Shown: in pieces, positions 27,678 to 31,294 of the stretch
Layout: each line of letters begins with the position of its first letter
Numbering within the stretch: the first letter of the stretch is position 1
Origin: Octopus vulgaris
Taxonomy: Eukaryota
Reading direction: 5' to 3'
NCBI GenBank assembly: GCA_951406725.2
Contig: OX597830.1
Coordinates: 68,448,001 to 68,512,000 of the forward strand
DNA: 64,000 nucleotides
Translations under genes and position numbers: made by a program
The notes under the pieces: model-generated
What the model was told of the DNA's origin: nothing
What the model saw: the letters and a program-made list of their open reading frames with translations, nothing else
Database searches by the model: none

Positions 27678-29954
27678 TTAGAGTATGTTTAGTTGTGGTC
27701 TGTATTTTTGAATAAGATTACTTTCCTTATTTATTCGTGTTTGGTCTGTGGTGTTGTCCGAGCATTGGTATAGTGGGAAGACTAAGAATTTGGGGGACTT
27801 ATTGTGTGCACAAAGGTCTAAGTGTCCACTTAGTGGTATCTGTCTTGTGGAGGGGTCCCTCAGTTGTTGTCGGTGAACTGTCATTCTTTCTCTGAGGGTA
27901 AGGCTCGTTTGCCCTATGTAGTCTTCGTGGCATCCTTCACACCTTATGACGTAGAGTAAATTTTTTGATGCGCACGTGAAATTATTTTTTATGATGAATG
28001 TGTGTCCCGAGTGGAACTTGTACGACGATCCCTCAATGAGGTGGATGCAGGTCTTGCAGTTCGGGCGACCACATTTTTTTATGGTGGGCGGTGGGTTTGT
28101 GTTGTGTAATTTTGCGTTGGTGAGGAGGTTTTTTAGGGATTTAGGTTGTCTCTTACTTTTTATTATTTTATGAGCTGCCAGTACTTTTTTCAGGCGTGGG
28201 TCTTGATTTAGTTGTGGAATGTTGTTGTATATAATAGTGTAAGCTTCTGCATTCCTTGGCTTGTGTGTTGAGAGATAGGGGAGGCTATTTACTGTACTGT
28301 GGATGTGTTTGGGTTTTCGTAGGTCTTGAATGTTGATTGATTTGGCCCGTTCTATTCCGTTGTCTACTAGTGATGCCGGGTAATGTCTTTCGAGAAGAAT
28401 CGCCCTTAGTTCCCGGAGTCTTCTATTTCGTGTTGTGTCATTTGAGACAATAGTGCAGATTCTTCTCGCTAGGTTGAAGGGGATATTTGTCTTTGTGTGT
28501 TTTGGGTGATTGGAGGTGAATAGAAGGTATTGTTTAGAGTCAGTGGGTTTGTAATGGATGTCAGTTTCAATGTTGACGCCATTTTTAATGATTAGGATGT
28601 CAAGAAAAGGGAGTTGGTCCTGACTATATTCCATTGTGAATTGAATGTTGTTATTTACACTGTTGATAAGGTTTTTGAAGTCTATAAGTTGGTCGAGTGT
28701 GTGGGACCATAGGATGAGGCAATCATCTAAGTAGCGTTTCCAGTTCTCCAACAGGTATTTGTGGAAAGACTGGCCGTACTTATATTTGGATTTTTCATAG
28801 ATATATGATTCCAGGTAGGCCATCACCAGGTTTGCATAGGTAGGTGCAACTTTCGTACCCATTGCAGTTCCTGAGACCTGTCTGTAAGTGTTGTTGTGGA
28901 AATACATGAAGTTGTTTTGCAGAATAAATTTGAGGCCCTCAATTATGAATTCTTTTTTAATTCTTTCCGGGATCTCATTGGGATATTTATCCAGCCAGAA
29001 TTTAATGGCTTCCAGTCCATATTCATGTGGGATTGTGGTGTAAAGATTAATAACATCAAAAGAAACGATTAAGGTGTCTTTATCGGCATGTTTGGGGAGA
29101 TGATTTAATAGGTCCAGGTCATCTCTTACAATACTTGGAATGTGTTTCAGTATTGGCTTTAAGATGATATCTATAAAGTTGCTAAGTCTGTGTGTTTCAC
29201 AACTTGGGCCTGCCACTATTGGTCTCAGTTTGAGATCAGTGGGATGTGGTATAGTGATGCAGGTTGAAGTGGACTTTTTGCAAGCTTCTGTGATAATTTG
29301 ACTCTTGTGTATTTTTGGAAGCCCATAGAGTGTGCTGGTTTTGCAATTAAATTTAGTAATGTAGTCGCATTCCTTTGCTGTCAAGTCATTCCGGTGTTGG
29401 TAAATGAGTGCCTTCAGTTTGGTCATTGTTTTGGATTGCTTGTAGTCGACTACTCTTTCATAGTATGTGGTATCCTCTAAAAGGAGAGATACAGAGTTTT
29501 TATATTGCTCAGTATTCATAACAACGACCGTACTACCCTTATCAGCTTCCTTTATTGTGACGTCATGATTGTCTCGTAGCGTATGGATGATTTCCCATTC
29601 TCTTTTACTGGTGTTGGGTTTGAGTTTAGGTTGTGGGAGTTCACCATAAGGGAAGCTGGAGATGTAATCGCAAAATTTGGCTAAGGTTTTGTTTTTGCCT
29701 TTTATGGGATTATAGTTGCTTTTGTTACGGACCATTGATTCGTCGTTATTATTAGTTTTCCTGTCAAAAAATTCCTCTGTGAGGCGTAATTTTCTGCAAA
29801 AGTGTGAGATGTCATCCTGTATTTCCCTCAGGTTAGGGTATTGCGGAGTTGGGGTGAATTTTAGTCCTCTTGAAAGGATTTTTATTTGTGGTGTCGACAG
29901 GTTTAGGTTAGAAAGATTCACTATTTTTGGTTTTTCGGGGTTGGTATCTACCAT
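27678..29954 (-). CDS. PLE ORF2: reverse transcriptase plus C-terminal GIY-YIG endonuclease (758 aa, intact)
   Basis: IKEADKG, LYGLPKIHK, LRPIVAG, FDVINLYTTIP, YRQVSGTAMG, RYLDD; linker CGRPNCKTC; LLYVIRCEGC..YIGQT..RERMTVH..E..PQLN (Neptune-like architecture). Confidence 0.97.
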   Translation of the reverse strand: MVDTNPEKPKIVNLSNLNLSTPQIKILSRGLKFTPTPQYPNLREIQDDISHFCRKLRLTEEFFDRKTNNNDESMVRNKSNYNPIKGKNKTLAKFCDYISSFPYGELPQPKLKPNTSKREWEIIHTLRDNHDVTIKEADKGSTVVVMNTEQYKNSVSLLLEDTTYYERVVDYKQSKTMTKLKALIYQHRNDLTAKECDYITKFNCKTSTLYGLPKIHKSQIITEACKKSTSTCITIPHPTDLKLRPIVAGPSCETHRLSNFIDIILKPILKHIPSIVRDDLDLLNHLPKHADKDTLIVSFDVINLYTTIPHEYGLEAIKFWLDKYPNEIPERIKKEFIIEGLKFILQNNFMYFHNNTYRQVSGTAMGTKVAPTYANLVMAYLESYIYEKSKYKYGQSFHKYLLENWKRYLDDCLILWSHTLDQLIDFKNLINSVNNNIQFTMEYSQDQLPFLDILIIKNGVNIETDIHYKPTDSKQYLLFTSNHPKHTKTNIPFNLARRICTIVSNDTTRNRRLRELRAILLERHYPASLVDNGIERAKSINIQDLRKPKHIHSTVNSLPYLSTHKPRNAEAYTIIYNNIPQLNQDPRLKKVLAAHKIIKSKRQPKSLKNLLTNAKLHNTNPPPTIKKCGRPNCKTCIHLIEGSSYKFHSGHTFIIKNNFTCASKNLLYVIRCEGCHEDYIGQTSLTLRERMTVHRQQLRDPSTRQIPLSGHLDLCAHNKSPKFLVFPLYQCSDNTTDQTRINKESNLIQKYRPQLNIL

Positions 29955-31294
29955 CTGGTGTCGTGGAAACTGATGCCCTTGCCTAAAAAAGGAATCCTGG
30001 GGGTTCTTCTATCTGCGGTATTTTGCTGTATGTGATTCTGTCCCCCGTTGATATGTTGTCTGTTGAAGAGGTTTTGGTTGTTGTGATTCTGTCCCCCGTT
30101 GATATGTTGTCTGTTGAAGAGGTTTTGGTTGTTCCAGGGTCTGGGTTGTTGGTGTGGCCTCCTGGAAGAGTTTTGGTTATTCCAGGGTCTGGGTTGTTTG
30201 TCCTGGGTGTAATGTTGGTTCCTTAGAGTGGGTTGGAAACTACATTCATGGTTTAGAAGTGAATTCCTATATGTTGGGGGAGAACTCTGAGTTAGGAGCG
30301 GTTTGGGTTGGAATCTACAATCATAGTTCAGAGATGGGTTTCTAAGTGATGGGTAGGATCTCCGAATCTGGAACAGTTCTTGTGTGGGTTGGGGTCTACG
30401 TTGTCTGGTAAAGTTTTGTCTTGTGATGATGGGTGTCTCGGTTCTTTTGATGGGATTGTAGTGCTGTCTGTAAGTTCTGTTGTTGTTGTTGTCGATGTTA
30501 GGGGTGGTGTGTGTTCGGTGTTTTGTGGTTGGTTTTCTTTGTTTTTGGCGAGGGGTGTGAGTTGAAGTAGATATTTTAAAATATGGGTTGCTTGAAAGGT
30601 GTTCCTTTGTGAACTCTGTTTCATAATTGGCGAACCAGCTGTTTTTTTCCATTCGCTGGAGGGATGTTAGTTCTTCATCCTCGCAGTTTTTTCTCCAGAG
30701 TTTGGTGGTTTCATCAAGGAGTGCTCCTTCACGGTGTTTTGAGATTTCAATCTGCATTTCATTGTCAAGGGTCTTGGATTTTTCTTCACTGGCGTTGGCT
30801 CTGAGCCGCAAGAGTTCTACTTCCGTTTTGAATTTTTCAAAAGCTAGTTTCTCCCTGAGGTTTTTTTGGTTTTCTGGTTCATTTTGGATGGGTTTTATTT
30901 GTAGTTTTCTGGGTAGGATGATAGGGGTAGAGTTGAGCCACTTTTCATAAATGTCAGCTTTGTTGTTATTTTTTATGAAATTCCAGAAGGCAAACTTACG
31001 CGCTTTGAGATTTTTACTCCAGGTATTGTTAAGAGAGCTTTTAATTGAGAAGCAGTCTTTAGTTTGCTCCTGCTTTGGGAGCACTGCCGTCTCTATGGAT
31101 TTCATTAGGTTTTGCAGTGTTGGGATGATGTCAGAGATTTGATTGGTTGTTTTGGCCTCCATGAGTCCATTTAGGTATAAGTGCGATTGTTCGACTTTGT
31201 TTATTATGGTTGAAAGTTTCGAGGAGATTTCTTGTAATTCTTTTAGGATATTTTGGTTCATTAAAGATTCTGCTTGTTGTGATTTGGGTGGCAT
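29948..31294 (-). CDS. PLE ORF1: 448-aa coiled-coil/helical protein with N/Q/R-rich repetitive C-terminus
   Basis: Uninterrupted frame from ATG (MPPKSQQ) at 31294; heptad-like LKELQEISSKLSTIINKVEQ; its stop overlaps the ORF2 ATG (ATGGTAG). Confidence 0.85.
   Translation of the reverse strand: MPPKSQQAESLMNQNILKELQEISSKLSTIINKVEQSHLYLNGLMEAKTTNQISDIIPTLQNLMKSIETAVLPKQEQTKDCFSIKSSLNNTWSKNLKARKFAFWNFIKNNNKADIYEKWLNSTPIILPRKLQIKPIQNEPENQKNLREKLAFEKFKTEVELLRLRANASEEKSKTLDNEMQIEISKHREGALLDETTKLWRKNCEDEELTSLQRMEKNSWFANYETEFTKEHLSSNPYFKISTSTHTPRQKQRKPTTKHRTHTTPNIDNNNNRTYRQHYNPIKRTETPIITRQNFTRQRRPQPTQELFQIRRSYPSLRNPSLNYDCRFQPKPLLTQSSPPTYRNSLLNHECSFQPTLRNQHYTQDKQPRPWNNQNSSRRPHQQPRPWNNQNLFNRQHINGGQNHNNQNLFNRQHINGGQNHIQQNTADRRTPRIPFLGKGISFHDTRW
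29984..29990 (-). promoter_or_regulatory. Putative -1 programmed ribosomal frameshift site U_UUU_UUA
   Basis: CCT TTT TTA GGC (PFLG) in the ORF1 frame; the -1 frame reads RQGHQFPRHQ-MVDTN directly into ORF2. Confidence 0.7.

Follow-up and report, generated by a model that had tools for sequence, protein, structure and literature searches.

A predicted -1 ribosomal frameshift links ORF1 to the reverse transcriptase-endonuclease of a Neptune-type Penelope-like element in Octopus vulgaris

How is a reverse transcriptase (RT) produced when its reading frame opens inside another one, out of phase with it? The question is raised by a Penelope-like element (PLE) in a 64,000-nt stretch of Octopus vulgaris contig OX597830.1, hereafter the window. 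As read from the sequence, the minus strand of the window carries a whole PLE with two overlapping frames; coordinates below are on this strand unless noted. Open reading frame 1 (ORF1) encodes 448 aa without an internal stop, from an ATG at 31294 to a TAG at 29950-29948 (29948..31294). ORF2 lies in the -1 frame relative to ORF1, spans 776 codons from stop to stop (27678..30008) and holds N-terminal motifs, an RT, a linker zinc finger and a GIY-YIG endonuclease (EN). The -1 frame is closed by a TAG (30009..30011), and six codons 3' of it stands the slippery heptamer U_UUU_UUA (29984..29990), which is the heptamer of HIV-1 gag-pol and reads Phe-Leu in the ORF1 frame. Its context, CCT TTT TTA GGC, sets it in the X_XXY_YYZ phase with 11 sense codons left in ORF1; the ORF1 stop follows 36 nt past the A-site UUA, and a TGG codon occupies the 33-nt position. 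An earlier sequence-only reading of this locus had described the intact ORF1 overlapping an RT-GIY-YIG frame, the heptamer in this phase 11 codons before the ORF1 stop, and the TAG a few codons upstream, and all of these were confirmed at the coordinates given.

We propose, with a probability of about 0.88, that the RT-endonuclease is made via a programmed -1 ribosomal frameshift predicted at U_UUU_UUA. Most ribosomes would end at the ORF1 stop and free a helical, basic-tailed protein, and a minority would slip at the Phe-Leu codons and carry on into the RT-endonuclease. The predicted slip product has 437 + 768 = 1205 aa, and the RT-endonuclease is likely made solely as this fusion to ORF1. 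The sequence-only reading had likewise envisaged ORF1 plus a rarer fusion of ~1200 aa, a view that the conservation of the heptamer and its phase supports. By itself, the heptamer of the window is only modestly above chance and is weak evidence alone: in-phase canonical heptamers occur in ORF1 at 5 per 449 codons, or ~0.2 per 20-codon overlap by chance. It gains its weight from being conserved across families, not from its mere presence.

To follow the junction beyond this copy, we searched the 2.8-Gb genome (227 contigs) with RT and ORF1 queries, which gave five sister families (B-F), and added seven elements from other contig collections, six having both an RT and a match to ORF1 (L098, L144, L145, L148, L150, and L153) and one reached via its RT side (L158). 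L115, which has an in-phase U6A without an ORF1 match, and L212 were excluded from the counts. The families are related, and the counts carry no kinship correction and are not fully independent. In the N-terminal 300 aa of ORF2, families B-F are 54-57% identical to the window element and the other elements 33-50%. The heptamer is in phase in 13/13 elements, window included, as U6A in 11 and U6G in two. Across these 13 elements, the -1 frame contains 99 stops in 1300 codons 5' of the heptamer versus none in the 195 codons from the heptamer to the ORF1 stop (14.9 expected), and none in the 351 codons from the heptamer to the first conserved ORF2 motif. One element (L144) has a -1 stop immediately 5' of the heptamer, and in another (L148) ORF1 ends one codon past it, so that the overlap is barely longer than the heptamer itself. 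An in-frame Met precedes the first conserved ORF2 motif in only 2/13 elements. In an RT tree of 33 rows, in which family E filled only 19% of columns and from which L193 was absent, as were most loci of a G3U4 group (described below), nine U6 rows fall on one side of a branch with support 96, together with one unlabelled row; L158 is their sister.

The same pattern is visible at the protein level. A profile search with ORF1 returned 815 clusters (50% identity level), and none of the best 150 exceeds 553 aa; a scan of metagenome contigs for ORF1 gave zero matches. Phe-Leu, the product of U_UUU_UUA/G in the ORF1 frame, lies within the last 40 residues of 66/79 ORF1 homologs of at least 330 aa, versus 3, 4, 8, and 9/79 in four control windows. 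On the RT side, the best 120 of 397 homologs measure 433-839 aa in a search that admitted 1358 aa, and 36/100 motif-bearing homologs are called from no more than 16 residues from the motif, 3' of the IxNLS motif. Since these RTs are called from downstream AUGs, databases likely contain truncated RTs and orphan ORF1s.

Several observations weigh against a slip at the heptamer. Among the folded U6A/U6G junctions no stem is conserved past the heptamer, where a stimulatory stem-loop or pseudoknot would lie 5-9 nt downstream; families B and C fold at 0.0 kcal/mol over the next 50 nt, which hold 2 U; and 13/79 of the long ORF1 homologs have no Phe-Leu near their end. An AUG also stands beside the ORF1 stop in the window's family, as AUG-G-UAG (29948..29954, with the earliest ORF2 AUG at 29954), and AUGA overlaps occur in 7/12 checked loci on another branch of the RT tree. 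These starts bear on termination-reinitiation, in which a ribosome, having terminated at the UAG of ORF1, would begin again at the adjoining AUG (or at a near-cognate one) and so make the RT-endonuclease as a separate protein of 758 aa. The -1 codon at the AUG position is ATG, ATA, TTG, CTG, or CTA in 9/13 elements, and reinitiation of the TURBS type accepts near-cognate starts at ~45% or less (PMC10275272). An AUG within ~20 nt of the ORF1 stop is, however, found in the window alone (that of family D is 30 nt from the stop), and 11/13 elements have no Met at all before the first conserved ORF2 motif. Reinitiation would leave unexplained why the heptamer marks the opening of the -1 frame, which stays free of stops over the 195 codons of overlap, and why the Phe-Leu phase is held while the distance to the stop spans 12 to 40 residues. 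We consider it improbable as the general route; the AUGA overlaps and the AUG of the window do make it plausible that reinitiation is used nearby, and it may serve the window's family as a secondary route. The U-rich run followed by AG could alternatively be a spliceosomal 3' acceptor, from which a spliced RNA would drop ORF1 and express ORF2. The string TTTTTTAG is compatible with such an acceptor, which also counts against the frameshift; TTCCTTTTTTAG|G resembles a good acceptor, AG comes next in 11/13 elements, and introns are known in PLEs (PMC8557442, PMC4209133). The two U6G elements, L098 and L158, nevertheless read TTTTTTG|T without the acceptor AG, and in 20/66 ORF1 homologs the residue after Phe-Leu cannot begin with G. 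An acceptor would not require a fixed ORF1 phase either; no GTRAG donor is common to the six families, two of which have none in 2.2 kb upstream. Splicing is thus quite an improbable account of the junction.

The length of the U run in individual copies bears on the remaining explanations. A pattern search across the run found 67 genomic copies of the window's family, with T6 in 56, T5 in 10, one substitution, and T7 in none; T7 is the sole one-base length change able to fuse the frames. Of the 133 matches in sister family B, the 100 listed comprise 97 with T6, two with T7, and one with a substitution; ORF1 is 5'-truncated in each of the two T7 copies. Contigs of four public short-read runs, whose RNA origin is guessed, which show neither strand nor level and in which rare variants are lost, span the site with no indel and no splice joint among those listed there. 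A look for expression gave no RNA data set on record as containing the sequence. Transcriptional slippage, by which an extra U in the U6 run would give some RNAs a fused frame, could draw on the instability of the run in DNA copies (T5 in 10/67; T7 in 2 of the 100 listed in family B). Polymerase slippage is indifferent to codon phase, yet the phase is conserved, and with no insertion in the short-read contigs and the truncation of both family B T7 copies, we regard slippage as very unlikely. Nor is the element plausibly a single-ORF PLE whose copy in the window was mutated or misassembled at a homopolymer. One-base homopolymer deletions are present in several copies, and other branches do contain relatives with a single ORF and a long N-terminal part; against this stand the lack of T7 in the 67 copies, the same split in 12 other families and in the short-read contigs, and the occurrence of ORF1 homologs as free-standing proteins. 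A homopolymer or assembly error is ruled out by these copy counts, those of family B and the short-read contigs, and the single-ORF reading as a whole has a negligible chance. The comparison with other genomic copies that the sequence-only reading had proposed thus returned no single-ORF version in the window's family. We call this family young, since its 40 scored copies share 98-100% identity over the junction region.

If ribosomes slip at U_UUU_UUA, what would make them do so? The sequence-only reading had pointed to short stems 3' of the heptamer (CAUC/GAUG and UGGUA-GA-UACCA). These are present in the sequence; they do not exceed shuffled controls (z = +0.67 over 50 nt and +1.41 over 90 nt) and are not conserved, which leaves them implausible as a shared stimulator; the heptamer and the -1 phase are kept in the sister families. 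Of the 13 junctions with an ORF1 match that were folded (for stems only, and with L158 unshuffled), L144 and L148 alone have z below -2. With conserved structure missing, frameshift efficiency may be low. The position of the ORF1 stop offers another candidate. A stop exactly 11 codons past the Leu codon, i.e., 10 residues after Phe-Leu, is found in 21/66 proteins (~2 under a geometric null), and none of the 66 has fewer than 10 residues after Phe-Leu (22-48 under the same null). The 21 exact-spacing ORF1s have a median pairwise identity of 32%. At the DNA level, the corresponding 33 nt from A site to stop are seen in families B and C, L150, and L158, with TGG at that codon in five more elements including the window. 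Yeast disomes measure 58 and 61 nt, which gives spacings of 30 and 33 nt, and accumulate at stop codons (PMC7784341). With its A site on UUA, a ribosome would have one more codon to go before colliding fully with another that is terminating at the ORF1 stop.

Queueing behind a terminating ribosome ~11 codons 3' is our leading, if doubtful, candidate for the stimulator. Several points speak against it: 19/21 exact-spacing cases belong to one 31-member clade of a quick ORF1 tree, which also holds the nearest homologs of the window, and because of this shared clade they are not independent; the spacing differs from 33 nt in 9/13 DNA-level elements (range, 6 to 93 nt; window, 36 nt); and the spacing may instead stem from a constraint imposed by the ORF2 frame. 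Alternatively, U6A may be slippery enough by itself, or hairpins or proteins particular to single lineages may act as stimulators. The broader idea, that a wide clade of EN-bearing (EN+) PLEs uses structure-free -1 frameshifting in which a terminating ribosome 33 nt 3' acts as a roadblock and ties RT output to ribosome density and termination speed, is speculative and on balance unlikely. Should stop spacing indeed stimulate slipping, these elements would be a natural example of collision-driven -1 frameshifting that is testable with simple reporters. We also looked for a 10-codon periodicity of stops past the first peak (23, 33) and dropped it, since such stops can come from Ile/Val codons of ORF2.

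What, then, is the protein that most ribosomes would release? Residues 1-240 of ORF1 are predicted to form an all-helical domain with a long N-terminal helix (pLDDT 89.9 for residues 1-265), and residues 241-448 form a low-complexity basic tail rich in R, N, Q, and P with a net charge of +25. By analogy with the ORF1 proteins of retrotransposons, ORF1 is probably an RNA-binding particle protein that is required in excess. With regard to a capsid, zinc-knuckle, or RRM fold of the Gag or LINE ORF1p type, no Pfam family is common to more than one of 111 ORF1 members; a fold search gave unrelated helical bundles (best Z 8.6) and no viral match at E <= 0.001; comparison with PDB sequences gave generic coiled-coil matches only, and Atlas no usable match. 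A three-copy oligomer prediction, run without an alignment, scored 0.01. Between ORF1 and the N-terminal region of relatives with a single ORF the match is weak (hhalign 6% and 0.4%), and we do not claim homology. Because no Gag fold was found in this helical, basic-tailed protein, the description "gag-pol-like" made from the sequence alone fits the predicted mode of expression and probably not the protein. Near the end of ORF1, Asp-Thr-Arg-Trp or a close variant stands at a set distance after Phe-Leu in the window (29951-29962), in families B, D, E, and F, and in P0002-P0005; the tail around it is otherwise unalignable, and the Trp codon sits at the position of the relatives' stop.

We next placed the element among known PLEs by the Neptune/Nematis feature list (RT, GIY-YIG, CCHH, and linker) of Craig et al. 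(2021; PMC8557442). The first conserved N-terminal motif (IVNLS ... RGLKF) lies at 29856..29924 and the RT core, which extends from DKG to YLDD, at 28722..29549, with RGLKF at 29870, EADKG at 29549, and YLDD at 28733; both GxKF and DKG are thus found. The RT scores 29.5 bits against a cut-off of 29.6 with Pfam RVT_1 (E 7.6e-7), and GIY-YIG scores 25 bits, above its cut-off of 22.6. The endonuclease has the CCHH motif, with two Cys between YVI and YIG and two His 3' of them, and the C-terminal end portion of the ORF2 frame occupies 27678..27980. The linker holds a CX4CxxC zinc finger of the Neptune/Nematis type (28047..28073), and its spacing to GIY, compared by eye with the rows of Fig. S2 in Craig et al. 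(2021), is like the Neptune rows and unlike the shorter Nematis rows. Pseudo-long terminal repeats (pseudo-LTRs), a tandem/inverted arrangement, and a (TA)n target were all found, and named RT homologs come from bivalves and an octopus. The element departs from the single ORF of Neptune-type EN+ PLEs: the window and 12 related families have two frames. By its sequence, with an RT tree of unnamed loci only and a linker judged by eye, we classify the element as an intact Neptune-type endonuclease-bearing PLE. Neptune-clade EN+ PLEs (PMC8557442) share with it the order of RT and C-terminal GIY-YIG, the CCHH motif, a CX2-5CxxC linker, pseudo-LTRs, tandem/inverted insertion, and a microsatellite target. 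Unlike canonical Neptune elements, the window element has a conserved free ORF1 overlapping the RT-endonuclease at -1 and a degenerate hammerhead core. It also differs from Athena/Coprina elements, which are EN-minus, two-ORF, and telomeric, in having a fused GIY-YIG and copies dispersed over many contigs.

Frameshifting with a pseudoknot is reportedly a feature of Athena/Terminons; unlike these, the window element carries a fused endonuclease, has dispersed and not telomeric copies, and lacks a conserved downstream structure. How far is the arrangement new? Canonical EN+ PLEs are described as single-ORF (PMC8557442, PMC11167929), and the sole reconstituted system is likewise single-ORF. The legend of Fig. 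1 in Craig et al. (2021; PMC8557442) does mention, among animal PLE types, an ORF1 separable by a frameshift with a pseudoknot; as predicted for the window, ORF1 lies 5' of the PLE RT and is joined to it by a frameshift. This legend lowers the novelty that the sequence-only reading had implied. We found no other published description of frameshifting in an EN+ PLE, and no publication on this ORF1 family, this heptamer in it, or a terminating ribosome as a -1 stimulator, in a search to which subscription papers and Repbase were external. HIV-1 gag-pol resembles what is predicted for the window, in that a slip on a UUA-bearing, U-rich site yields a rarer enzyme fusion beside a plentiful upstream protein; HIV-1 has a downstream RNA structure (PMC13712778), whereas the window group has none conserved and its ORF1 no Gag-like match. 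A two-ORF Neptune element of killifish also has an ORF 5' of the RT-endonuclease, but its ORFs are termed non-overlapping and the main text does not mention a frameshift (PMC12602865). The same order is found in a sponge PLE, whose ORF1p is, however, an esterase, again with no frameshift mentioned in the main text (PMC3905857).

Related EN+ PLEs appear to have four solutions for joining the same parts, namely a fusion, a U6A slip, a G3U4 slip with a hairpin, and an AUGA overlap, which makes them a useful natural series. In the G3U4 group, a distant set of EN+ PLEs (L195:1737-1796, L196:1852-1911, L199, L201, L204, L209, L215, L218, and L219), ORF1 ends in Gly-Phe with G_GGU_UUU/C in slip phase. 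The stop follows 1-3 codons after the heptamer, and a short GC hairpin ~8 nt 3' has four consensus pairs, two of them changed on both sides, and weak energy. Several of these loci lie among (CCCTAG)n-type tracts, and the ORF1 of this group aligns with the N-terminal region of relatives with a single ORF (hhalign 96%). At seven further loci (L168, L171, L172, L173, L174, L177, and L183), the first AUG of an EN+ PLE-type RT overlaps an upstream stop in the -1/+1 offset as AUGA, with long upstream ORFs at L168 (618 codons) and L177 (715 codons), which hints that a separate branch couples stop and start. In the window's large, young family and in the broad clade of the 815 ORF1 clusters, ORF1 is unannotated, and reconstitution of such elements would require the fusion and ORF1 in their ratio. 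Animal-type PLEs also turn up in bacterial assemblies or under names of bacterial symbionts (L098, L103, L107, and L110-L143; P0021, P0029, P0042, and P0086), probably through host contamination.

The rest of the element is laid out as follows. A 5' pseudo-LTR (31316..32321) is a direct repeat of the element's 3' end, with 95-98% identity to parts of 25393-26482. The 3' untranslated region (25393..27677) has many (CA)n/(TA)n tracts and the 3' pseudo-LTR at its end; a ~150-nt (TA)n-type tract splits this pseudo-LTR at 25446-25596, where the 5' copy has only a few bases. An inverted, 5'-truncated copy on the plus strand (32321..34693) retains the final 133 aa of ORF2 at 98% identity and the 3' untranslated region. 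The pair is flanked by a (TA)n-type microsatellite, the likely insertion target, at 25137..25392 (no strand assigned) and at about 34694-35382. A degenerate hammerhead-like motif lies at 31409..31453, its core starting UUGA rather than CUGA, with the ACCGGT palindrome retained, and a matching motif is found in the pseudo-LTR at 34606-34650 on the plus strand. Two core bases are absent in most copies, and family B is degenerate too, again with the palindrome kept. Rfam hammerhead models gave no match to the element, and the relatives L145, L153, and L098 carry intact hammerhead cores. In eight copies (L006, L007, L042, L044, L048, L049, L056, and L060), the C5 run before the heptamer is one C short, so that ORF1 ends at the TAG within U6AG, by mutation or a homopolymer under-call. 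Elsewhere in the window, 15443-16346 (minus strand) holds decayed, microsatellite-interrupted pieces of a further PLE from this group, with 31-48% identity to ORF2.

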